Below are positions 8,096 through 21,671 of a stretch of DNA of 22,748 bases, piece by piece (position 1 is the first letter of the stretch; every line of letters starts with the position of its first letter). The notes under the pieces were generated by a model, which was given only the letters and a program-made list of their open reading frames with translations, ran no database searches and was not told where the DNA came from. This stretch comes from a virus (lineage: Duplodnaviria > Heunggongvirae > Uroviricota > Caudoviricetes): the IMG/VR virus record IMGVR_UViG_2671180674_000012, positions 1 through 22,748 of that record; one strand, 5' to 3'. The position numbers and the translations under genes were made by a program.

Positions 8096-8312
8096 TCAAT
8101 ATGTCGAGACGAAGGTATGTTTCGGCGCGCAGCCAGGCTCTGTAATCCGGGAGCATTTCGGGGCTGTTACACCAGCGGTTTGTTGCTGCAACATTTAATA
8201 CATGAGCCTGATAAAGGCTTTTCAAAAAATACATGTCGAACCTCCTCTGGTTCTGTTGATTGGGAACCACAGATTATATCCGGAGGAAGGTTCGGCACCA
8301 GATGAGGTAGCC

Positions 8313-9422
8313 ATGCGTGATTACGCAAAAGTTTCTCCGCGATTCTGGCTGGGAGAAACGGGGAGAGAACTTAGAAAGGCGGGTGCAGAAGCGCAAGTTG
8401 TTGCTTTTTACCTGATGACATCCCCTCACGCAAATATGCTGGGTTTGTATTACCTGCCAGTTTTATACCTTGCTCATGAAACCGGGCTTGGTCTGGAAGG
8501 GGCTTCAAAGGGGCTTAAAAGGGCTGTTGAAGCTGGTTTTTGTAGCTATGACCATGATGCCGAGATGGTCTGGGTCCATGAAATGGCAGCCTGGCAGGTT
8601 GGGGAAACGTTGAAGCCAGGCGATAACCGTTGTGCAGGTGTCAGGAATGAGTATGCATCATTACCTGAAAACGCTTTTCTGTCAGCGTTTTACGACAGAT
8701 ATAAAACGGATTTCCATCTTGATGTGAGGCGGAATAATAGCCGAAATTCGGTAAGGGGCTTTGAAGGGGCTTTTAAGGGGCTTCGAAGCCAAGAACAGGA
8801 GCAGGAGAAAGAACAGGAACAGGACAAAAACACTATGGTTCATGGCGAAAAAAACACCATGAACCAGGCAGGGGATGTTCAGACCGTAAATTCTGGTCAG
8901 CCAGCAGGCACGACACCGGAAGCCGATTCGGCGTATGCGCTGAAAGCCGATTCGGGCGCTGTGCAGCAGGTGATGACCGCAGGGTCGGAGCAATCACACC
9001 AACTGCAGCAGCCTGAAGCCGATTCCGCCATTCAGCGGGAAGCCGATCGGGTAGTCCCGGAAAACGCCGGGCGGCCTGTGGGACGAGTGGATTATCCGGA
9101 TGTGTTCGAACAGGTCTGGCGGGAATACCCGTTGCGTGCCGGGGCAAACCCGAAGAAATCCGCATTCAGTGCCTGGAAGGCCAGATTGCGCGAGGGGGTG
9201 CCACCAGAGACCATGCTGGATGGTGTGAGGCGTTACGCGAGATACCTGGCGGCGACCGGGAAAGCGGGAACGGAATTTGTTCAGCGAGCGACGACGTTTT
9301 TTGGACCGGACCGGAATTTTGAGAACCCCTGGTTGCTCCCGGTAAGCGGCACGAACAACCAGCGTTGCGTGAATCACATTTCTGAACCGGACACCGAAAT
9401 TCCGCCGGGATTCAGTGGGTAA
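8313..9422 (+). CDS. Putative replication initiator (YdaU/O-like) with internal iterons
   Basis: ATG 8313 with GAGGT RBS (the ORF-track start at 8202 lacks one). Immediately precedes the DnaC-like loader; contains two DNA iteron clusters. Confidence 0.6.
   Translation: MRDYAKVSPRFWLGETGRELRKAGAEAQVVAFYLMTSPHANMLGLYYLPVLYLAHETGLGLEGASKGLKRAVEAGFCSYDHDAEMVWVHEMAAWQVGETLKPGDNRCAGVRNEYASLPENAFLSAFYDRYKTDFHLDVRRNNSRNSVRGFEGAFKGLRSQEQEQEKEQEQDKNTMVHGEKNTMNQAGDVQTVNSGQPAGTTPEADSAYALKADSGAVQQVMTAGSEQSHQLQQPEADSAIQREADRVVPENAGRPVGRVDYPDVFEQVWREYPLRAGANPKKSAFSAWKARLREGVPPETMLDGVRRYARYLAATGKAGTEFVQRATTFFGPDRNFENPWLLPVSGTNNQRCVNHISEPDTEIPPGFSG
8496..8785. repeat. Putative replication origin: two clusters of three AAGGGGCTT iterons at 11-bp period
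   Basis: Cores at 8498-8505, 8509-8516, 8520-8525 and at 8753-8761, 8764-8772, 8775-8783. The 11-bp spacing is not a codon multiple, so this is a DNA-level repeat. Purine-rich tract follows the second cluster. Confidence 0.5.
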
Positions 9423-9428
9423 CGGGTT

Positions 9429-10157
9429 ATGAAAAATATTGCGGCAGGTGGTGTTCTTGAGCGTATCCGTAAGCTGGCCCCGCAGCATGTAACCGCGCCG
9501 TACCGGACAGTGGACGAGTGGCGAGAGTGGCAGCTTGCAGAAGGGCGAAAGCGTAGTGAGGAAATTAACCGCCAGAATCGCCAGATCCGGGTGGAGAAAA
9601 TTATGAAGCGTTCCGGTATCCAACTGTTGCACCAGAAGTGTTCGTTTGCGAATTACCAGGTGAAGAACGATGGCCAACGCCACGCGCTGAGCCAGGCAAA
9701 ATCCATCGCGGAAGAAATGATGACCGGATGCACAAATTTCGTGTTCAGCGGTAAGCCGGGTACCGGAAAGAATCATCTGGCAGCAGCCATTGGCAACCAT
9801 CTTCTGGCGAAAGGTCGCAGCGTGATTGTGGTGACGGTGGCGGATGTGATGCTGGCGTTACACGGCAACTACGACAACAAAAACTCGGGCGAAAAATTTT
9901 TGCAGGGGTTGTGTGAAGTTGACCTGCTTGTCCTGGATGAAATTGGTATGCAGCGGGATACGCGTAACGAACAGGTCACACTGAACCAGATAGTCGATCG
10001 CAGAACAGCCTCGATGCACAGCGTCGGGATGCTGACGAACCTGAACCATACGGCAATGAATACGCTGCTTGGCGAGCGCGTGATGGATCGCATGACCATG
10101 AACGGTGGTCGCTGGGTGAATTTTAACTGGGAGAGCTGGCGTTCAAATGTTGGTTAG
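9429..10157 (+). CDS. DnaC-like helicase loader (AAA+ ATPase)
   Basis: Walker A FSGKPGTGKNHLAAAIG and Walker B LLVLDEIG; position after the initiator as in lambdoid replication modules (Rac ydaV-like). Confidence 0.8.
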   Translation: MKNIAAGGVLERIRKLAPQHVTAPYRTVDEWREWQLAEGRKRSEEINRQNRQIRVEKIMKRSGIQLLHQKCSFANYQVKNDGQRHALSQAKSIAEEMMTGCTNFVFSGKPGTGKNHLAAAIGNHLLAKGRSVIVVTVADVMLALHGNYDNKNSGEKFLQGLCEVDLLVLDEIGMQRDTRNEQVTLNQIVDRRTASMHSVGMLTNLNHTAMNTLLGERVMDRMTMNGGRWVNFNWESWRSNVG

Positions 10158-10196
10158 CCAGGAATTGAGAAATAATTTTACCGGGAGGAAATTTTA

Positions 10197-10952
10197 ATGG
10201 AGACCGTTTTTGATGCACTGAAAGCAATGGGAAAAGCCACGTCGGTGGAACTGGTCGCACGACTTGAAATCAGTCGTGAAGAAGTGCTGAACGAGCTGTG
10301 GGAACTAAAAAGAAATGGCGTCGTTGATAAAACTGGCCACACCTGGTTTCTGGCTGGCGAAGGTGAATCCGGGGTAACCGAAGAGCAGCCAGCACAATCT
10401 GAAGCACCGGATGTGCTAACCGGGGTGGTCGAACAAAAAGTTACCGCTGACATGATGATTGAGTTTATCGGCCAGGAGGGGGCTAAAACGTGTGAGGAAC
10501 TGGCGGGTAAGTTCGGTGTCAGCATTCGCAAGGTTGCTTCCACGCTGGCGGTAGTAACCTCAACAGGGCGGCTGGCACGCGTTAATCAGAACGGTAAATT
10601 TCGTTACTGCATGCCGGGCGAGAATTTACCAGCAGAACCGAAAGCTGCATCGGTAGCGGAAACTGATGGTAAAGCCTTTCCTCAGCCAGCGGGTGTTGTG
10701 TTACCAGCACAGGAGGCTGCAACACAGGAAGATATTAAAACAGAAACTGTAGCGGACATTGTGCAGTCGCTGCCATCGTTTACTGCAACGCGAGCTGATG
10801 ATTTGATTTTGCCATCGCTGCATACGGCAAACCGCGAACTGCGTCGGGCGAAAAGTCATGTCCGGAAGTGGGAGCGAGTCTGCGCGGCGCTGCGGGAACT
10901 GTACAGGCACAAGGATATTGTCAGACAGATTATCGCCACCGGAGAACGGTAG
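10197..10952 (+). CDS. Hypothetical protein, possible N-terminal winged-helix domain
   Basis: ATG with GGGAGG RBS at 8-nt spacing; N-terminus [26 protein letters not shown] looks wHTH-like. Confidence 0.5.
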
Positions 10953-10954
10953 CG

Positions 10955-11272
10955 GTGAGTGGCTGGAAGAAGTGGTGCAGGGCTGAAATCATGGTGCTCC
11001 GGCAGTGTGCGGGAACGATGACAGTCGACAGCATCGGCAGTCTGATTGGTCGTAGTGAGCCGGCGGTCAGGGCGAAAGCACGGGAACTGGGTATCGGCAT
11101 GATGTTGCGTGGTGATTATCACCAGTCAACAAAATATCCGCAGAGCGATATTGAGCTGGTACGACAGTTGCATCAGCGTGGCGTGTCCAGGAGAGAAATT
11201 GCCAGAAAATTCGGAATGCCGTTGCGCACAGTGAATAACTACGTTTATTTCAACAGGAGGGTTCTGGAGTGA
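10955..11272 (+). CDS. Hypothetical protein with two HTH-like segments
   Basis: GTG start 3 nt after the upstream stop with GGAG upstream; segments GRSEPAVRAKARELGIG and GVSRREIARKFGMPLRTVNNYV. Confidence 0.45.
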   Translation: MSGWKKWCRAEIMVLRQCAGTMTVDSIGSLIGRSEPAVRAKARELGIGMMLRGDYHQSTKYPQSDIELVRQLHQRGVSRREIARKFGMPLRTVNNYVYFNRRVLE

Positions 11273-11559
11273 GGGTTTATATCGCCGGTCCAATGACGGG
11301 CTATGAAAATTTCAACCGTGAGGCGTTCCACAAGGCGGAAGAGGAACTGAAACGGGATGGGCACACAGTCTTAAATCCGGCAGTACTTCCGGACGGACTG
11401 ACGCAGCCGCACTACATGGATATTTGCATGGCAATGATTCGCTGCGTGGATGCGATCTACATGCTGAATGGCTGGCAGCGGTCGGCAGGTGCCAGGGCAG
11501 AACTGGCACTGGCGGAGAAGCTGGGGCATGCGGTTATTTTACAGAAGGCGATGCAGTGA
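11269..11559 (+). CDS. DUF4406-like protein (nucleoside 2-deoxyribosyltransferase-like fold)
   Basis: GTG start overlapping the upstream stop (GTGA); MRVYIAGPMTGYENFNREAF matches the N-terminal motif of this family as I recall it. Confidence 0.5.
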   Translation: MRVYIAGPMTGYENFNREAFHKAEEELKRDGHTVLNPAVLPDGLTQPHYMDICMAMIRCVDAIYMLNGWQRSAGARAELALAEKLGHAVILQKAMQ

Positions 11560-11561
11560 AT

Positions 11562-11738
11562 ATGTTCTGGATAATCAAAATTGAGCTGTTTGTTATTGTT
11601 TTCCTGATCAGTGCATTTCTGGCAGCGGCTTTTATTATCTGGGAAAATCCTTTTCGACATATCAGTCCACTGTTTGCAATCAGGGTGTTAATAGCATCGG
11701 TTGTAGAGGTGTGGTTAATTTGTTTTGCATTATTTTAA
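11562..11738 (+). CDS. Small predicted membrane protein (58 aa)
   Basis: ATG 3 nt after the upstream stop; hydrophobic product MFWIIKIELFVIVFLISAFLAAAFIIW; weak RBS. Confidence 0.3.
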   Translation: MFWIIKIELFVIVFLISAFLAAAFIIWENPFRHISPLFAIRVLIASVVEVWLICFALF

Positions 11739-11751
11739 TGGAGTTAATGTT

Positions 11752-12063
11752 ATGAACGAAATCAAAGAAATGCCGGTAGAACGTGATGCATATGGCTGCT
11801 GGACACATCCTGAATATGAAAAATTTTGTGATGGCCGGGAGTATATTTCGACGGAAGAATTTAATGCCTGGATGAAGGCAAATAATCTTCAGTGGACCAT
11901 TCGCGCAATGGATGAAGATGATTTTAATCCGGATGCGGATGGTCCTGATATTACCGCATGGGAGCCGGAACGACCAGAGGGTGAGGGGTGGTTTATTGGC
12001 TCCATTCATGACACGGAAGACGGCCCGGTTTGTGTATGGATGAGAAATAAGGTTCAGGCATAA
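11752..12063 (+). CDS. Hypothetical protein (103 aa)
   Basis: ATG with GGAG RBS at 10 nt; acidic product; no family recognised. Confidence 0.5.
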   Translation: MNEIKEMPVERDAYGCWTHPEYEKFCDGREYISTEEFNAWMKANNLQWTIRAMDEDDFNPDADGPDITAWEPERPEGEGWFIGSIHDTEDGPVCVWMRNKVQA

Positions 12064-12191
12064 AGCGATAAACAAACTGACAATAAGACACTGAAATTTA
12101 AATCAGAAGTGATTTTTATTAAATCCTTAACCGGAGGGATTTCTGCACCCTCAAAACATCAGGAGGCCGCCCGAAAGGGCGGTAATAAATA

Positions 12192-12782
12192 ATGCAAGAC
12201 ATCAAAGAAAATATCAGACAACAGCTTTACGGGTTTTATATTGCTTATGATTTGTGGCTGAGTAATGGGGCGAAACCAGGTGGGGTGTTTTCTCGAAATT
12301 ATGGTTTATGCGCCAATCTTTTCGATTATCTCACATCAATCGGTGCCTCCAGCGAAGCGGCACTGGAACAATTACACGCTGATTTCAGAAGTGCCGGGCT
12401 GAATGAGGTGTTGCCATTTAACGAGAGTAATGGGCATTACCATGAAGAAAAAAGGAACAACATGTGCCATGTGAATCCGGCGCGGGTGGCGTGGGTCAGG
12501 GCGCAGATTGCACTGGTATCACTGGAAGCAGAGCCGATAGCAGTAAGCGACGACATGGCTTACGCATTCCATCATGCACTGTCAGATTCATCGTCAGGTG
12601 CTGATGAGGTAGAGGAAATTAAGGCCGGGTTGCGTGCAGCCTTTGCCAATGTCACCGTCCAGCCGGTACTGATAGTGCCGGATGAAATGGATTTGCTTAC
12701 CTGCCATCTCGACGGTGTAACTGAAACATATGCTGATGGCTGGAACGCCTGTCGCGCCGCCATGCTTAAGGGAGATAAATAA
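12192..12782 (+). CDS. Hypothetical protein (196 aa)
   Basis: ORF preceded by an AGGAGG element and a GAAA-tetraloop hairpin; no family recognised. Confidence 0.55.
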   Translation: MQDIKENIRQQLYGFYIAYDLWLSNGAKPGGVFSRNYGLCANLFDYLTSIGASSEAALEQLHADFRSAGLNEVLPFNESNGHYHEEKRNNMCHVNPARVAWVRAQIALVSLEAEPIAVSDDMAYAFHHALSDSSSGADEVEEIKAGLRAAFANVTVQPVLIVPDEMDLLTCHLDGVTETYADGWNACRAAMLKGDK

Positions 12783-13366
12783 TGATTAATCGAACCAAAC
12801 TGGAGCACATTCTCGAATATGCCAGGCTGCAGAAATGTATTGGGCAACTTTGTAAAATTCCACCAGGAGATATGGTTGAAATCGTGGAAATGGCCATGCG
12901 TAAGGCTGGCAACTCTCCGGTAACTCCGGCTCGCCTGCCTGGTGGTTTCACCATTGAGGATGCGAAGGAGTTACATGAAGACTTGGTACGCAGCCACATA
13001 AGCCAGGCTTTAAGTTGTGAGAGGATGAAAAAGAACGATCGCGATGCTGATTTGCGCTGGATTCATGGCGTTATAGTTCAGGCCGCGTGGTTTGTAAAAG
13101 CGTCACTGGAGCAGAATGCGCTAACGGGCAACTCTCCGGTAACTCCGGCTGGCTGGATAAGCTGTAGTGAGCGAATGCCGGAAAAGAATCAGAACGTACT
13201 TATTTCGGTGAATTTTGATAGCTCTCTGGTTGAACCGCTAATATGCTCCGCACGCTATACCGGAAGCACATTCCGGCGCGGAGATGCAACGATTAAGCCG
13301 GGTAATGGTATTGAGTCGGCAACTCACTGGATGAAATTACCGGAACCGCCGCAGGAGGTGAACTGA
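12782..13366 (+). CDS. DUF551-like prophage protein with an internal duplicated GNSPVTPA segment
   Basis: GGGAG RBS; start overlaps the upstream stop (TAATG). C-terminal WISCSERMPE...VLISV...ATHWMKLPEPP resembles DUF551; contains the 24-bp exact direct repeat. Confidence 0.55.
   Translation: MINRTKLEHILEYARLQKCIGQLCKIPPGDMVEIVEMAMRKAGNSPVTPARLPGGFTIEDAKELHEDLVRSHISQALSCERMKKNDRDADLRWIHGVIVQAAWFVKASLEQNALTGNSPVTPAGWISCSERMPEKNQNVLISVNFDSSLVEPLICSARYTGSTFRRGDATIKPGNGIESATHWMKLPEPPQEVN
12908..13151 (+). repeat. 24-bp exact direct repeat (GGCAACTCTCCGGTAACTCCGGCT) at 12908-12931 and 13128-13151
   Basis: Read directly from the sequence; both copies lie inside the DUF551-like CDS and encode GNSPVTPA. 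Confidence 0.8.
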
Positions 13367-13758
13367 TGAATGAAGGCGACAATGTTATCACCCTGGTGCA
13401 GCCAAAATCAGAAGAGGAAGAACTTCTCAACGTTGTGATAACCGACGAAAAAAGCGTCGAGCAAAAATGCTGTCAGCATTTCCGTACAACAATTTCAGAA
13501 GTGAATCGTACGATTACCTGCAAACGGTGTGGATTGGCTTTAGATCCGTTTGAACTTGTTCTCGACCGTGCGAGAAACGGTGAAAACATCGTGTCAGAGA
13601 TTAAATCACTCTATACAAAGCGGGATGCTCTTCGTGAAGCTGTGGCAAAACTTGAACGTGAAGAGAAAAACGCCAAAGCGCGGTTACGAGCAGTCAGGAC
13701 AGCAATACTGTATGCGGAAAATGACCTTAAAAATATTGAGCAGGAGGTGAATCGATGA
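13366..13758 (+). CDS. Hypothetical protein with zinc-ribbon-like motif (130 aa)
   Basis: GGAGG RBS; start overlaps the upstream stop; CCQH...CKRCG motif and a coiled-coil-like C-terminus. Confidence 0.5.
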   Translation: MNEGDNVITLVQPKSEEEELLNVVITDEKSVEQKCCQHFRTTISEVNRTITCKRCGLALDPFELVLDRARNGENIVSEIKSLYTKRDALREAVAKLEREEKNAKARLRAVRTAILYAENDLKNIEQEVNR

Positions 13759-13832
13759 CCGAAGCATTCACAACGGCAGGAATTGCGATGGCGGTGGCGC
13801 TGGTGGTGTATTCGATTTGCCGCTGGGGATAA
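13755..13832 (+). CDS. 25-aa hydrophobic peptide (MTEAFTTAGIAMAVALVVYSICRWG), translationally coupled
   Basis: ATGA overlap with the upstream stop; strong GGAGG SD 8 nt upstream; followed directly by a terminator. Absent from the ORF track because it is under 60 aa. Confidence 0.35.
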   Translation: MTEAFTTAGIAMAVALVVYSICRWG

Positions 13833-13842
13833 CAAACAAAAA

Positions 13843-13868
13843 CCCCGGATTGACGGTCCGGGGTTTTT
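13843..13868 (+). terminator. Rho-independent terminator ending the early plus-strand gene run
   Basis: Stem CCCCGGA/TCCGGGG with 7-nt loop, then TTTTT. Confidence 0.5.
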
Positions 13869-14206
13869 GAAGGAAACAAACAGAAACAACAATTGCCGTT
13901 ATCTGTTGCCACCAATGACAAGTAAACGTATCTCAGGCGAGCGCATTGCGCCGTTCTGACGCGGATACATTAGCCTGGGCAGAAGGTTCTGGCAATAAAA
14001 AATAGCGTTTTCTTATCGGTGTCGGTAAGATTGTTGCGGGTGCTTGAGGCTGTCTGCCTCGGGCATGCCACTGTAAGGCAGACAGAGAAAAGCCCCAGTT
14101 AACATCACGCGTCCTGCAAGACGCTTAACATTAATCTGAGGCTCAATCCATGCTGAACACATGTAGGTTAGCCTCTTACGTGCCGAAAGGCAAGGAGAAG
14201 CAGGCT

Positions 14207-14362
14207 ATGAAGCAGCAAAAGGCGATGTTAATCGCCCTGATCGTCATCTGTTTAACCGTCATAGTGACGGCACTGGTAACGAGGAAAGACCTCTGCGAGG
14301 TACGAATCCGAACCGGCCAGACGGAGGTCGCTGTCTTCACAGCTTACGAATCTGAGGAGTAA
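14207..14362 (+). CDS. hok: Hok/Gef-family type I toxin (HokD/RelF-like membrane peptide)
   Basis: Product MKQQKAMLIALIVICLTVIVTALVTRKDLCEVRIRTGQTEVAVFTAYESEE is near-identical to Hok/Gef peptides as I recall them; AAGGAG RBS; structured leader and own terminator. Confidence 0.8.
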   Translation: MKQQKAMLIALIVICLTVIVTALVTRKDLCEVRIRTGQTEVAVFTAYESEE

Positions 14363-14432
14363 GAGACCTGGCGGGGGAGAAATCCCTCGCCACCTCTGAT
14401 GTGTCAGGCATCCTCAACGCACCCGCACTTAA

Positions 14433-14452
14433 CCCGCTTCGGCGGGTTTTTT
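14433..14452 (+). terminator. Rho-independent terminator after hok
   Basis: CCCGC-TTCG-GCGGG followed by TTTTTT. Confidence 0.55.
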
Positions 14453-14587
14453 GTTACGATTATTTTTAATCAAACAGGCTTTTTGTGTTTTTGTGATTTG
14501 TTGTTCTTGAGGCTAATTACGGGGGAAATAGAATCTCATTACTTGATTGGCGCGCAGGGAGAAGAAGGATGGTCCCCTTAAGGGGAG

Positions 14588-14782
14588 GTGTTTAAAGTTC
14601 ACGGGATTTTGGTTATGAACGATAAGGAATTAATTGCTGCGCTTTCTATACCAGGTAATTATGAAGTAATAGTTCTTGAGAATGGTGAGTTTATCGTAAT
14701 GCCATTGCCATCCGATGTTATTCTGATCACCAAAGAATCACATGCGGATTCGGTCAGTCACTTCAGCATTAAGAAAGACTAG
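14588..14782 (+). CDS. Small hypothetical protein; start uncertain (GTG 14588 or ATG 14615)
   Basis: ORF of 64 codons; the SD-like AGGGGAGG lies at a poor distance from either candidate start. Confidence 0.3.
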   Translation: MFKVHGILVMNDKELIAALSIPGNYEVIVLENGEFIVMPLPSDVILITKESHADSVSHFSIKKD

Positions 14783-14848
14783 ATTATAATGTTGTAGTTA
14801 AAGCCAGCCTGAACAACTGGCGTCTGTCGCACCATTACGAGGATAGTA

Positions 14849-15121
14849 GTGGTGCATTACAAGAAAATTAACAATTCTGATGCCGCCCCTGCCAGCAGAT
14901 ACGGGCGGCGTTCTCACACATTCAAATATGACTGGTATCAGCATGCCCCCTGCACTGAAGAACAGGCCGAATGGCTGATACAGAACTACCGCAGACGTGG
15001 GTATGAGTTTAGGAAAGCCCTCAGCCTCGATTATCGTCACTGGATAATCTCCGTCAGGCTTCCTTACTCCGAACGCCCACCGCGTCCGTCCCGCACATAC
15101 CAGCAACGCATCTGGAGATAA
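14849..15121 (+). CDS. Hypothetical protein (90 aa)
   Basis: GTG start with GAGGA upstream; its stop is 1 nt before the DUF968 gene start. Confidence 0.45.
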   Translation: MVHYKKINNSDAAPASRYGRRSHTFKYDWYQHAPCTEEQAEWLIQNYRRRGYEFRKALSLDYRHWIISVRLPYSERPPRPSRTYQQRIWR

Positions 15122-15122
15122 C

Positions 15123-16172
15123 GTGCGGGTATTACTTCGACCTGTTCTGGTACCGGAACTTGGGCTGGTTATCGTTAAGCCAGGCCGTGAATCCATGCAG
15201 GTATTCCATAACGGCAGGGTGCTGGTGGAGCCGGAACCGAAAAACATGCGCGGTCTGCCGTCCGGAGTCGTTCCTGCCGTTCGCCAGCCGCTGGCGGAAG
15301 ATAAAACATTGCTGCCGTTTTTCAGCGATGAGCGTGTGATTCGTGCTGCTGGCGGCGCTGGCGCACTGTCTGACTGGCTCCTGCGTCATGTTAAATCCTG
15401 CCAGTGGCCTCATGGAGACTATCACCACAGTGAAACCGTCATACATCGTTACGGTACCGGCGCAATGGTGTTGTGCTGGCACTGCGACAACCAGCTGCGC
15501 GACCAGACATCCGAATCACTCGGGCAGCTTGCTCAACAAAATCTGACCGCCTGGATGATTGACGTCATACGTCACGCAATAAGTGGTGCACAGGAACGGG
15601 AATTATCGCTGGCTGAATTATCCTGGTGGGCGCTCTGCAATCAGGTAGCGGACGCACTACCGGAGGCAGTATTACGTCGTTCTCTGGGGTTACGCGCGGA
15701 AAAAATCCACTCAGTATACCGCGAGAGTAACATCATACCGGGAGAACAGACAGCCACCAGCATACTGAAGCAGCGCACAAAAAATTTTGCGCCGTTGCCT
15801 CACGCCCACCAGCAACAGAACCCACCACAGGAAAAGACGGTTGTAAGTATCACAGTTGATCCGGAGTCACCGGAATCATTCATGAAGCGGCCTAAACGTC
15901 GCCGCTGGGTGAATGAGAAATACACGCGCTGGGTAAAGACACAGCCGTGTACGTGTTGTGGTAAGCCAGCAGACGATCCCCATCACCTGATTGGTCACGG
16001 TCAGGGCGGAATGGGGACAAAAGCCCACGATATTTTTACGTTGCCGCTGTGCCGGGAACATCACAACGAACTTCATGCAGATCCGCAGGCGTTCGAAGAA
16101 AAGCATGGTTCTCAGGTTGATTTAATTTTTCGTTTTCTTGATCACGCCTTTGCAACTGGCGTACTCGGATAA
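15123..16172 (+). CDS. DUF968-family prophage protein with C-terminal HNH-like zinc-binding motif
   Basis: C-terminal CTCCGKPADDPHHLIGHGQGGMGTKAHDIFTLPLCREHHNELH; sits upstream of rusA and Q as ydfU does in Qin-like prophages. Confidence 0.6.
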   Translation: MRVLLRPVLVPELGLVIVKPGRESMQVFHNGRVLVEPEPKNMRGLPSGVVPAVRQPLAEDKTLLPFFSDERVIRAAGGAGALSDWLLRHVKSCQWPHGDYHHSETVIHRYGTGAMVLCWHCDNQLRDQTSESLGQLAQQNLTAWMIDVIRHAISGAQERELSLAELSWWALCNQVADALPEAVLRRSLGLRAEKIHSVYRESNIIPGEQTATSILKQRTKNFAPLPHAHQQQNPPQEKTVVSITVDPESPESFMKRPKRRRWVNEKYTRWVKTQPCTCCGKPADDPHHLIGHGQGGMGTKAHDIFTLPLCREHHNELHADPQAFEEKHGSQVDLIFRFLDHAFATGVLG

Positions 16173-16184
16173 AAGAGGTTACTG

Positions 16185-16559
16185 ATGGGGATAGAATTTG
16201 TTTTGCCTTACCCGCCGACGGTAAACACCTACTGGCGACGCCGTGGCAGCACATATTTTATATCGGAAGCCGGTAAGCGTTATCGCCGTGATGTGGCACT
16301 TATAGTTCGCCAGCAGAGGCTGAAATTAAACCTGTCCGGAAGGCTGGCGATAACGGTTATTGCCGAGCCTCCGGATAAGCGCCGTCGTGATCTGGACAAT
16401 ATCCTGAAAGCGCCACTGGATGCACTGACACATGCGGGGTTGCTCATAGACGATGAGCAGTTTGATGAAATCAATATTGTGCGCGGTCAGCTCGTTCCTG
16501 GTGGGCGGCTGGGCGTGAAGATTTACGAAATAATGCATGACGGGCAGGTCCAAAAATGA
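16185..16559 (+). CDS. rusA: RusA-family Holliday junction resolvase
   Basis: LPYPPTVNTYWRRRG...PPDKRRRDLDNILKAPLDALTHAGLLIDDEQ matches the RusA signature; AGAGG RBS. Confidence 0.85.
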   Translation: MGIEFVLPYPPTVNTYWRRRGSTYFISEAGKRYRRDVALIVRQQRLKLNLSGRLAITVIAEPPDKRRRDLDNILKAPLDALTHAGLLIDDEQFDEINIVRGQLVPGGRLGVKIYEIMHDGQVQK

Positions 16560-17377
16560 AACTGGAAGATTTACCGAAATACTATTCCCCAAAATCGCCA
16601 GGCCTGACTGATGTATCCGCCTCGACGTCAAAAGATGCACTGAGTATCACTGATGTGATGGCTGCGCAGGGGATGACACAGAACCGGGCTGAGATGGGAT
16701 TTTCTGCGTTCCTGGGGAAAATGGGTATTAGTATGAATGACAGGGTGCGGGCAACAGAATTACTGACAGATTATGCATTAAGTCAGTGCGATCGTGTGGC
16801 GGCGTTAAGGAAACTTCCGGCAGAAATAAAACCGGCAGTGATGCGTATTATGGCTTCGTATGCTTTTGAGGATTATGCCCGCAGCGCAGCGAGTAAAAAG
16901 CAGTGCCCTTGTTGCCATGGGGAAAAATTTATTGAAAGCGAAGTTTTTACAAACAAGGTTCAGTATCCGGATGGTAAGCCGCCAGTATGGGCAAAGTGTA
17001 CAAAAGGCGTGTATCCGTCTTACTGGGAAGAATGGAAAAAAATCCGGGAGGTGGTGAAAGTTTCCTGTCCTGAATGTAAAGGGAAGGGGGAGATCTCCAC
17101 TGCCTGTAAAGACTGCCGTGGGCGTGGTGTTGCCATTCATCGTGAAGAGTCAGAAAAACGGGGTATGCCTGTTATCAGGGGCTGCCGGCGTTGTGGCGGT
17201 CGTGGCTATGAAAGACTGCCATCAACGGAGGCATTTAATGCCATATGCAAAGTGACGAGTGCTATCACGCTTGATACATGGAAAAAATCAGTGAAACGCT
17301 TTTACGATACGTTGGTGGTTCGGTTTGACATTGAAGAGGCATGGGCGGAGCGGCAGTTAAAGATGGTAACGCGATAG
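16556..17377 (+). CDS. Putative late antiterminator (Q-like) with four CxxCxGxG zinc-finger repeats
   Basis: ATGA overlap with rusA; CPCCHGEKF, CPECKGKG, CKDCRGRG, CRRCGGRG; positioned directly upstream of a promoter/terminator pair. Identity as Q is inferred from position. Confidence 0.55.
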   Translation: MKLEDLPKYYSPKSPGLTDVSASTSKDALSITDVMAAQGMTQNRAEMGFSAFLGKMGISMNDRVRATELLTDYALSQCDRVAALRKLPAEIKPAVMRIMASYAFEDYARSAASKKQCPCCHGEKFIESEVFTNKVQYPDGKPPVWAKCTKGVYPSYWEEWKKIREVVKVSCPECKGKGEISTACKDCRGRGVAIHREESEKRGMPVIRGCRRCGGRGYERLPSTEAFNAICKVTSAITLDTWKKSVKRFYDTLVVRFDIEEAWAERQLKMVTR

Positions 17378-21245: not shown

Positions 21246-21671
21246 ATGTTTGGTATTTTCAAAAAGAAAACCCGTAAGGCTATTACTGAAGTGAAGAAAA
21301 TGGAGAACCGCGACGCGGTGGAGGCGACCGTCTGGGGCGCGTATTCCATTGCATACGCTGACGACACCTGTGACGCGAAAGAAATTGCGGTACTGGAGAA
21401 AACCATTGCAGCACTTCCTGCCTTTGCGCCGTTCTCCGGTGAGATTGCCCAGATGAGCGCGAATATCCGCGCCCGTTATGAAGCATCGCCGCGTTCTGCC
21501 AATGCTGAAGCCCTCCGTCAACTGGCTGATGTCGCCGGTACTGATGATGCCGTTAATGTGCTGTGCCTGTGTCTGGATATCGCAGACCAGGATGGCATTG
21601 GTCCGGATGAAGAAGCACAGCTCAAGAAAATTGCTCAGGCGCTGCAGTTACCGCTGGAGCAGTACCTGTGA
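21246..21671 (+). CDS. TerB-like (tellurite-resistance TerB family) protein
   Basis: 141-aa product with AAGGA RBS; helical, acidic composition and motifs (EIAVLEKTIAALP, VNVLCLCLDIADQDGIGPDEEAQLKKIAQAL) resemble the TerB fold from memory. Confidence 0.6.
   Translation: MFGIFKKKTRKAITEVKKMENRDAVEATVWGAYSIAYADDTCDAKEIAVLEKTIAALPAFAPFSGEIAQMSANIRARYEASPRSANAEALRQLADVAGTDDAVNVLCLCLDIADQDGIGPDEEAQLKKIAQALQLPLEQYL

Follow-up and report, generated by a model that had tools for sequence, protein, structure and literature searches.

A probably complete hok/mok/sok cassette in the nin-like region of a lambdoid Escherichia coli prophage

The DNA analysed here covers positions 1 to 22,748 of the IMG/VR virus record IMGVR_UViG_2671180674_000012 (22,748 nucleotides (nt), called the window below). 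Positions 14026-14454 very probably form a complete hok/mok/sok type I toxin-antitoxin cassette, located in the nin-like region of a Rac/Qin-like lambdoid Escherichia coli prophage. The cassette comprises an intact hok toxin gene with its overlapping mok frame, the refolding elements of a hok mRNA and the template and promoter of a Sok antisense RNA (Table 1). The presence, integrity and conservation of every canonical element, as well as the predicted alternative pairings, are established in the window, and the locus is near-identical to loci that have been tested; its transcription, processing, toxicity and biological role are what we infer. It is an allele of the annotated, experimentally tested hokW/hokD family and is in that sense already known.

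Table 1. Features of the hok locus and of the adjacent upstream stretch (positions in the window).
Feature	Position	Strand	Description
Small hydrophobic peptide gene, unannotated	13755..13832	+	25 amino acids (aa), MTEAFTTAGIAMAVALVVYSICRWG; start overlaps upstream stop (ATGA)
Bidirectional terminator	13837..13869	both	GC-rich hairpin ending the upstream gene run; belongs to the upstream module, not to hok
Candidate minus-strand small RNA, tentative	13837..13995	-	-35 TTGCCA (13995-13990), -10 TAATGT (13972-13967), conserved block, variable hairpin, terminator
hok promoter, -35 (TAGCGT)	14003..14008	+	Poor match to the consensus
hok promoter, -10 (TAAGAT)	14026..14031	+	Assigned by position only
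Full-length hok mRNA (~415 nt)	14038..14452	+	Predicted; Rfam leader match, 3' end fixed by terminator
tac (translational activator)	14038..14049	+	5' end; pairs with 14412-14424 (full-length fold) or 14090-14096 (3'-truncated fold)
Upper tac stem	14050..14085	+	Hairpin, arms 14050-14059 / 14076-14085
Sok antisense RNA (~71 nt), putative	14158 to 14088	-	Complementary to the mok translation start region
ucb (anti-Shine-Dalgarno of mok)	14090..14098	+	Pairs with the mok Shine-Dalgarno (SD) region (full-length) or with tac (truncated)
mok SD (GAGG)	14138..14141	+	8 nt 5' of ATG 14150; same motif as the R1 mok SD
mok reading frame	14150..14362	+	70 aa, in frame with hok, common stop codon
Sok promoter, putative	14165..14193	-	-35 TTGCCT (14193-14188), 17-nt spacer, -10 TAACCT (14170-14165)
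dcb (downstream complementary box)	14170..14175	+	Partner of 14138-14143 in the truncated fold, as also in the Rfam consensus structure
hok toxin gene	14207..14362	+	51 aa; SD AGGAG at 14193-14197
3' stem-loop	14370..14391	+	Helix GGCGGGGGA/UCCCUCGCC, present in both folds
fbi (fold-back inhibition)	14412..14424	+	12 bp with 14038-14049 in the minimum-free-energy fold
Intrinsic terminator of hok mRNA	14431..14454	+	Hairpin 14431-14448, then T-run

The hok gene, its leader and the Sok template

The toxin open reading frame (ORF) is intact and encodes a protein of the Hok/Gef type (MKQQKAMLIALIVICLTVIVTALVTRKDLCEVRIRTGQTEVAVFTAYESEE), as a preliminary description of the locus had recognised. The product matches Pfam PF01848 (HOK_GEF) with 82.9 bits, the cut-off being 22, and PHROG 251 ('MokW-like host killing') with 113.5 bits. 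It shows the hallmarks of the family, namely a length of about 50 aa, an N-terminal membrane helix and the core TRK-LCE ... E-VA-F-AYE, and the invariant columns are kept across the seven Hok proteins compared. Identity amounts to 98% with K-12 HokD (RelF), 94% with HokW of phage 933W/Sp5, 84% with HokC and 41-43% with R1-type Hok proteins. Neither an insertion sequence (IS) element nor a frameshift interrupts the locus. The overlapping mok frame, whose occurrence in homologues had been proposed as a check, is present with its own SD and remains open from its ATG to the hok stop codon; mokW/hokW of 933W and mokC/hokC of K-12 are annotated with the same in-frame layout.

Rfam family RF01794 ('sok') matches 14038-14212 of the plus strand with 114.1 bits (E 1e-25; gathering score 59), and it is the sole Rfam family at or above its gathering score within the whole window. 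All 157 positions of the model (1-157) are aligned, on the sense strand, which corresponds to the hok mRNA leader; the match proves that a hok leader and a Sok template are there, not that Sok is transcribed. Homology to the hokW cassette of 933W extends without gaps from about 14026 to about 14436 (380/411 positions identical), and homology to the copy on a P1-like plasmid and to the R1-type loci starts at the same place (14026-14030). These loci carry a -10 hexamer at equal spacing from GGGTGC/GGCGC: TAGAAT in 933W, TATAAT in hokC and the R1-type loci, and TACAAT in the P1-like plasmid. Upstream of this boundary, the stretch from 13755 to about 14006 occurs at 82-100% identity in prophages that carry a minus-strand gene in place of hok. 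Considering together the start of the Rfam match, the homology boundaries, the conserved -10 and the occurrence of the upstream stretch without hok, we therefore place the 5' end of the hok mRNA at about 14038, 6 nt after the -10, which puts the mok ATG after a leader of 112 nt and the hok ATG after one of 169 nt.

Several observations point to a Sok gene on the opposite strand. The annotated sokW of 933W maps onto the coordinates given in Table 1 for the antisense RNA; the annotated 5' end of K-12 sokC also falls at 14158, 8 nt inside mok, and this position is 7 nt beyond the putative -10. In distant plasmid hok loci no stretch is more conserved than the Sok promoter, and the window is identical to Sp5/933W throughout the promoter and the Sok region, including the sites of the sokW northern probes YO-592 (14129-14158) and YO-597 (14166-14195), both 100% identical. 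The predicted Sok RNA forms a long hairpin (-34.1 kcal/mol, z -4.9) that leaves the 5' tail unpaired and is followed by a U-rich 3' end. Judging from the sequence, the window would contain a Sok gene antisense to the mok start, equipped with a terminator and with a promoter of its own that lies within mok. The antisense RNA envisaged in the preliminary description fits this arrangement, with its conserved promoter and template, although it had been expected over 14100-14210 and maps to about 14088-14158 with the promoter at 14165-14193. In Sp5, sokW RNA was detected by northern probes, and the 'pro-less' mutation of the -10, which appears from primer YO-421 to have replaced TAGGTTA, abolished antitoxin activity and unmasked toxicity; Sok supplied in trans rescued this only in part (Takada et al. 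2021, PMC8621323).

The 415-nt RNA has a minimum free energy of -174.8 kcal/mol (z -7.2), and its predicted folds contain the tac/fbi, ucb/SD, tac/ucb and SD/dcb pairings that were originally defined for hok of plasmid R1. In the full-length fold, the two ends of the RNA pair through tac and fbi, 14091-14098 pairs with the mok SD region at 14136-14143, and the mok start pairs with 14407-14411. When the last 41 nt are removed, the 5' end of the resulting 374-nt RNA moves to 14090-14096 and the mok SD to 14170-14175. The 415- and 374-nt predictions are consistent with a switch from a closed form (ucb/mok SD) to an open form (tac/ucb plus SD/dcb). The tac/fbi duplex has an energy of -21.5 kcal/mol, and one of its pairs, U-A in the window, is C-G in the R1-type loci, a single compensatory exchange. 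The centroid of the truncated RNA also contains a metastable 5' hairpin (14042-14050 / 14056-14064), which competes with the tac stem.

Two complementary 9-mers, CTGTCTGCC and GGCAGACAG, had been proposed as long-range segments for fold-back control. They exist and pair, at 14050-14058 and 14077-14085 (one base off the positions first given); they lie 18 nt apart and form a local hairpin in the tac stem, so the long-range label does not hold. The tac stem hairpin belongs to the Rfam consensus structure, and in a comparison of six hok loci three of its pairs have changed in a compensatory way; the 9-mer pairing is therefore above chance. The true long-range pairing, and thus the fold-back element, is that of 14038-14049 with 14412-14424.

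In the 3' region, the stem-loop that follows hok would be expected to protect the processed, active mRNA, a role taken from mutagenesis of R1. The terminator downstream of it, which had been noted before, is identical in K-12 hokD, and the P1-like and R1-type loci have other terminators. The 3' untranslated region (14371-14452) also gave 30.5 bits with the small RNA IsrK (Rfam RF01394), below the gathering score of 50. Kinship with IsrK was rejected: the match is sub-threshold and rests on two hairpins, and in a distant BLAST of 14300-14470 against phages the best 30 of 180 records were hok loci or bare terminators, with no Salmonella link. The likeness to this Salmonella prophage RNA is probably a structural resemblance only. 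Just past the hok terminator, a promoter scan gave the only sigma-70-like site near the locus (14507-14534, plus strand; TTGAGG, 16 nt, TAGAAT), upstream of an ORF of unknown function (14588-14782, PHROG 34610), and transcription of the genes downstream of hok may restart there.

Genomic setting and relation to known hok loci

According to annotated relatives, the gene order of the prophage is integrase, excisionase, RecE-type exonuclease, DicB, repressor region, replication genes, hok, DUF968/HNH, RusA and Q antiterminator. The hok gene is thus located between the replication genes and the Q antiterminator gene, and its neighbours from about 8200 to 17377 are all on the plus strand. Within this early gene run the locus stands as its own unit flanked by two terminators, in accordance with the preliminary description, which had correctly placed a terminator upstream as well. 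It had also stated that relBE is not adjacent; indeed, no RelB or RelE domain was found in the ORFs upstream of hok by Pfam, PHROG or annotated relatives. The relBE-hokD arrangement of K-12 Qin is accordingly absent from the window, and the leader is intact where K-12 has relE sequence. At most 63% of the window is covered by any one complete E. coli genome, indicating a mosaic prophage.

Among phage-borne hok loci, only the hokW-mokW-sokW locus of 933W and the Sakai prophage Sp5 (AF125520) has been studied by experiment (Takada et al. 2021, PMC8621323). It resembles the window from the -10 to just past fbi with 92.5% identity; the Sok promoter, the mok start and the 5' half of hok are identical, and mok is likewise in frame. 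The two differ in three C-terminal Hok residues, in the 3' terminator and in the distance from the small upstream ORF to the mRNA start (~42 nt in 933W, ~205 nt in the window). They also differ in setting, since the cassette of 933W lies at the far end of the genome, in the orientation opposite to its neighbours, whereas that of the window is in the nin region.

More distant loci share the same design. Plasmid R1 and the R1-type IncFII loci have the same elements in the same order (tac, ucb, mok SD, dcb, Sok promoter, fbi, terminator) and are predicted to refold in the same way, but their Hok proteins are much less similar and R1 has a strong -10, TATAAT. In the R1-type copy of a Klebsiella IncFII plasmid, mok is out of frame with hok (the ATG being read by eye), in contrast to the in-frame mok of the window. 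R1 is plasmid-borne, and it is there that post-segregational killing is established. In the chromosomal hokC/mokC/sokC locus (gef) of E. coli, mok has the reading frame and the stop codon of hok, Sok starts 8 nt inside mok, and the leader has the same architecture; this leader is 19 nt shorter, the difference lying in the Sok-target hairpin, and the K-12 copy is disrupted downstream by IS186.

The hokD gene (relF) of the K-12 Qin cryptic prophage occupies the same position as the hok of the window, upstream of the DUF968 and Q genes. Its coding sequence differs by one codon (S49 in the window, P49 in K-12), and fbi and the terminator are identical. In K-12, however, relBE replaces the leader: tac, ucb, the mok start, the Sok target and the Sok promoter are missing, and the two sequences are homologous only from the hok SD onwards. 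From this boundary, together with the sameness of the rest, it follows that the locus truncated in K-12 is intact in the window, which illustrates the form of the intact hokD ancestor at the same prophage position. A separate observation concerns the Tyr47 codon of hok (TAC, 14345-14347, plus strand; within CTTACGAA), which lies within a TACG motif. According to a recent preprint, TadA A-to-I editing of the hokC, hokD and hokE mRNAs recodes this Tyr to Cys; the sole nucleotide difference from K-12 hokD (14351, T in the window and C in K-12) follows the putative edited A (14346) at a distance of 5 nt.

Comparison with four other sequences (L001, L005, L006 and L007) indicates that what moves is in essence the hok transcript itself, beginning at the -10 and ending shortly after fbi (14026-14436). 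The cassette occurs at several sites, namely the nin region (window), the far end of 933W and P1-like IncY phage-plasmids, and each host element brings its own terminator and its own -35 region. E. coli C5, RM11911 and FHI_NMBU_10 (L009-L011) carry a minus-strand gene at the equivalent of 14007-14450; it encodes a hypothetical protein of 93-110 aa, has its own terminator and replaces hok in a clean swap at the junction ...CTGGCAATAAAAA. As prophages are known to be enriched in hok loci and this cassette is a hokW/hokD allele, its value as a discovery is small; its use lies in mapping the boundaries of the cassette, with a terminator that differs per host element. RefSeq annotation of identical loci gives 'hokD' alone and omits mok, Sok and the small peptide gene upstream.

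Proposed control, role and alternatives

The mechanism that we propose follows the R1 paradigm, which could be matched element by element in the window. A weak constitutive promoter would give rise to the full-length hok mRNA, in which tac pairs with fbi and ucb covers the mok ribosome-binding site, so that neither translation nor Sok binding would occur. Slow 3' trimming would take off the terminator and fbi (~40 nt); tac would then pair with ucb and the mok ribosome-binding site would enter the dcb hairpin, making the RNA both translatable and a target of Sok. As long as it is made, the short-lived Sok would pair over the mok start and RNase III would cut the duplex, and with Hok translation coupled to that of mok, no Hok would be produced while Sok is present. 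Once Sok synthesis stops, the stable mRNA pool would be translated and the 51-aa Hok would depolarise the inner membrane. In Sp5, smaller hokW RNAs have been observed. Toxicity has been demonstrated for the HokD coding sequence as well as for hokW, which sokW neutralises.

By analogy with Sp5, the most likely role of the locus is that of a membrane-damaging helper, which the loss of Sok at prophage induction would set free and which would bring lysis and phage release forward. After RecA-dependent induction of Sp5, sokW vanished and HokW appeared; the only direct test of this closest phage homologue found earlier lysis and twofold more phage release on induction, with growth arrest about 40 min later and phage release halved when the locus was deleted (PMC8621323). 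Exclusion of other phages is a possibility as a secondary role; R1 hok/sok is reported to exclude T4. For the locus of the window, both post-segregational killing and phage exclusion, the two roles suggested previously for hok loci in prophages, are possible.

Some results weigh against this interpretation. The hok promoter fits the consensus weakly (4/6 at the -10, with an unconvincing -35), and a generic promoter scan flagged neither this promoter nor that of Sok, for which reason both were assigned by their conserved position and by the Sp5 experiments. The tac/fbi duplex taken alone is only moderately unusual: of 2000 dinucleotide shuffles of the 3' untranslated region, 33 give one that is as good. 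As to the role, the Sp5/933W cassette lies elsewhere and in the opposite orientation, so a function linked to induction may not transfer to the window, and chromosomal hok loci tested earlier are reported to have given no post-segregational killing.

We also considered that, at induction, most hok expression stems not from the gene's own promoter but from antiterminated early rightward transcription that reads through into it; such read-through would also occlude the convergent Sok promoter and cause the loss of Sok. The co-orientation of hok with all flanking early genes, the weakness of its promoter, and the fact that in Sp5 sokW was lost and HokW seen only after RecA-dependent induction speak in its favour. 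However, a strong terminator is located upstream of hok, the 933W/Sp5 cassette behaves likewise although it is placed elsewhere and opposite to its neighbours, tac would be buried inside a longer transcript, and the idea is conjectural throughout. We regard it as improbable, and it is compatible with, rather than exclusive of, the control by Sok decay and mRNA refolding proposed above.

It is very unlikely that the locus is a decayed, silent hok remnant like K-12 hokD or hokC, a coding sequence without working control or expression. PGAP names identical proteins 'HokD', the K-12 copies have lost the leader (hokD) or are cut by IS186 (hokC), and the weak hok promoter would agree with such a state. 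Unlike K-12 hokD, however, the window has retained its leader in full, together with mok, the Sok promoter, fbi and the terminator; it has no IS element or frameshift, and its regulatory core is identical to that of the functional hokW-sokW. Finally, the transcript originally described, starting at about 13870 with a structured leader of ~340 nt and the 9-mer pair as its fold-back control, can hardly be correct: 13870-14037 holds no other annotated gene and the 9-mer hairpin is real, but the Rfam leader match starts exactly at 14038, the 933W, P1-like and R1-type homologies begin only at 14026-14030, 13836-14006 is present in prophages without hok, and the partner of fbi is 14038-14049.

The stretch upstream of the cassette

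Since 13755-14006 is also found in prophages without hok, we treated it as a separate module. The part 13870-14006 was rejected as hok leader on the same ground and because it lies outside the homology boundaries. The module begins with the small peptide gene, which occurs in prophages with and without hok and is unannotated in 933W and in the RefSeq relatives examined. The peptide has 27 aa in most relatives; the 22 nucleotide variants from E. coli prophages and viral contigs are all in frame, including two different 6-nt deletions, and changes in the hydrophobic membrane segment are mostly synonymous. Its ATG always overlaps the stop codon of whichever gene precedes it (ATGA).

The terminator hairpin that follows has predicted energies of -23.0 kcal/mol on the plus strand and -20.7 on the minus strand, the scanner flagging it on the minus strand. 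It is likewise present in hok-less prophages and shows one compensatory change from A-U to G-C. One relative (IMG/VR contig L023) lacks the whole hairpin and keeps the small ORF and the conserved spacer block, which indicates that the terminator is a separable insertion or deletion.

Between this terminator and the hok cassette, a block at 13919-13963 is invariant in six sequences and has two variable sites among 20, with variable flanks, and the motif CTGGCAATAAAAA (13989-14001) is nearly invariant. A coding role for the block was discarded, as the short ORFs on either strand do not keep their frame among the aligned variants. The arrangement suggests instead a candidate small RNA on the minus strand: its -35 is nearly invariant and preceded by a T-tract, its -10 keeps TAnnnT in all three haplotypes, the 45-nt block would form its 5' part, its hairpin keeps pairing through G-U-compatible changes, and it ends in the terminator with the long U-tail UUUUUGUUUGUU. 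The consensus fold reaches -45.6 kcal/mol on the minus strand versus -38.0 on the plus strand, 98% of the cells in the pair counts are paired, and of 500 shuffles 6 score at least as high in covariation as the real alignment; given the caveats that come with the tool, this comparative support is weak to moderate.

The candidate has no Rfam family, and a search of the literature by nucleotide string and by peptide string gave no match. Within the window, the best repeat that could mark a target is a single 12-mer at 21424 (about chance), and no duplex stands out. The block was not matched in the phage collection, and in a scan of one genome per species 40 matches were obtained, of which only those in E. 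coli and Shigella are real, the rest being chance matches in GC-rich genomes. In these searches the candidate was confined to Escherichia/Shigella: of the 5426 complete E. coli genomes only about 30 carry it, and it was otherwise seen in 37 viral contigs. We consider it possible, though rather doubtful, that the small RNA is real. Equally tentative is the view of 13755-14006 as an independent, undescribed prophage module, in which a membrane peptide gene ends the upstream operon and faces a convergent minus-strand small RNA of about 125 nt. If so, peptide and convergent RNA could represent a novel small regulatory RNA or even, beside hok, a further type I toxin-antitoxin-like pair that is not of the Hok family, and a real small RNA would add one more prophage-encoded regulator restricted to Escherichia/Shigella.

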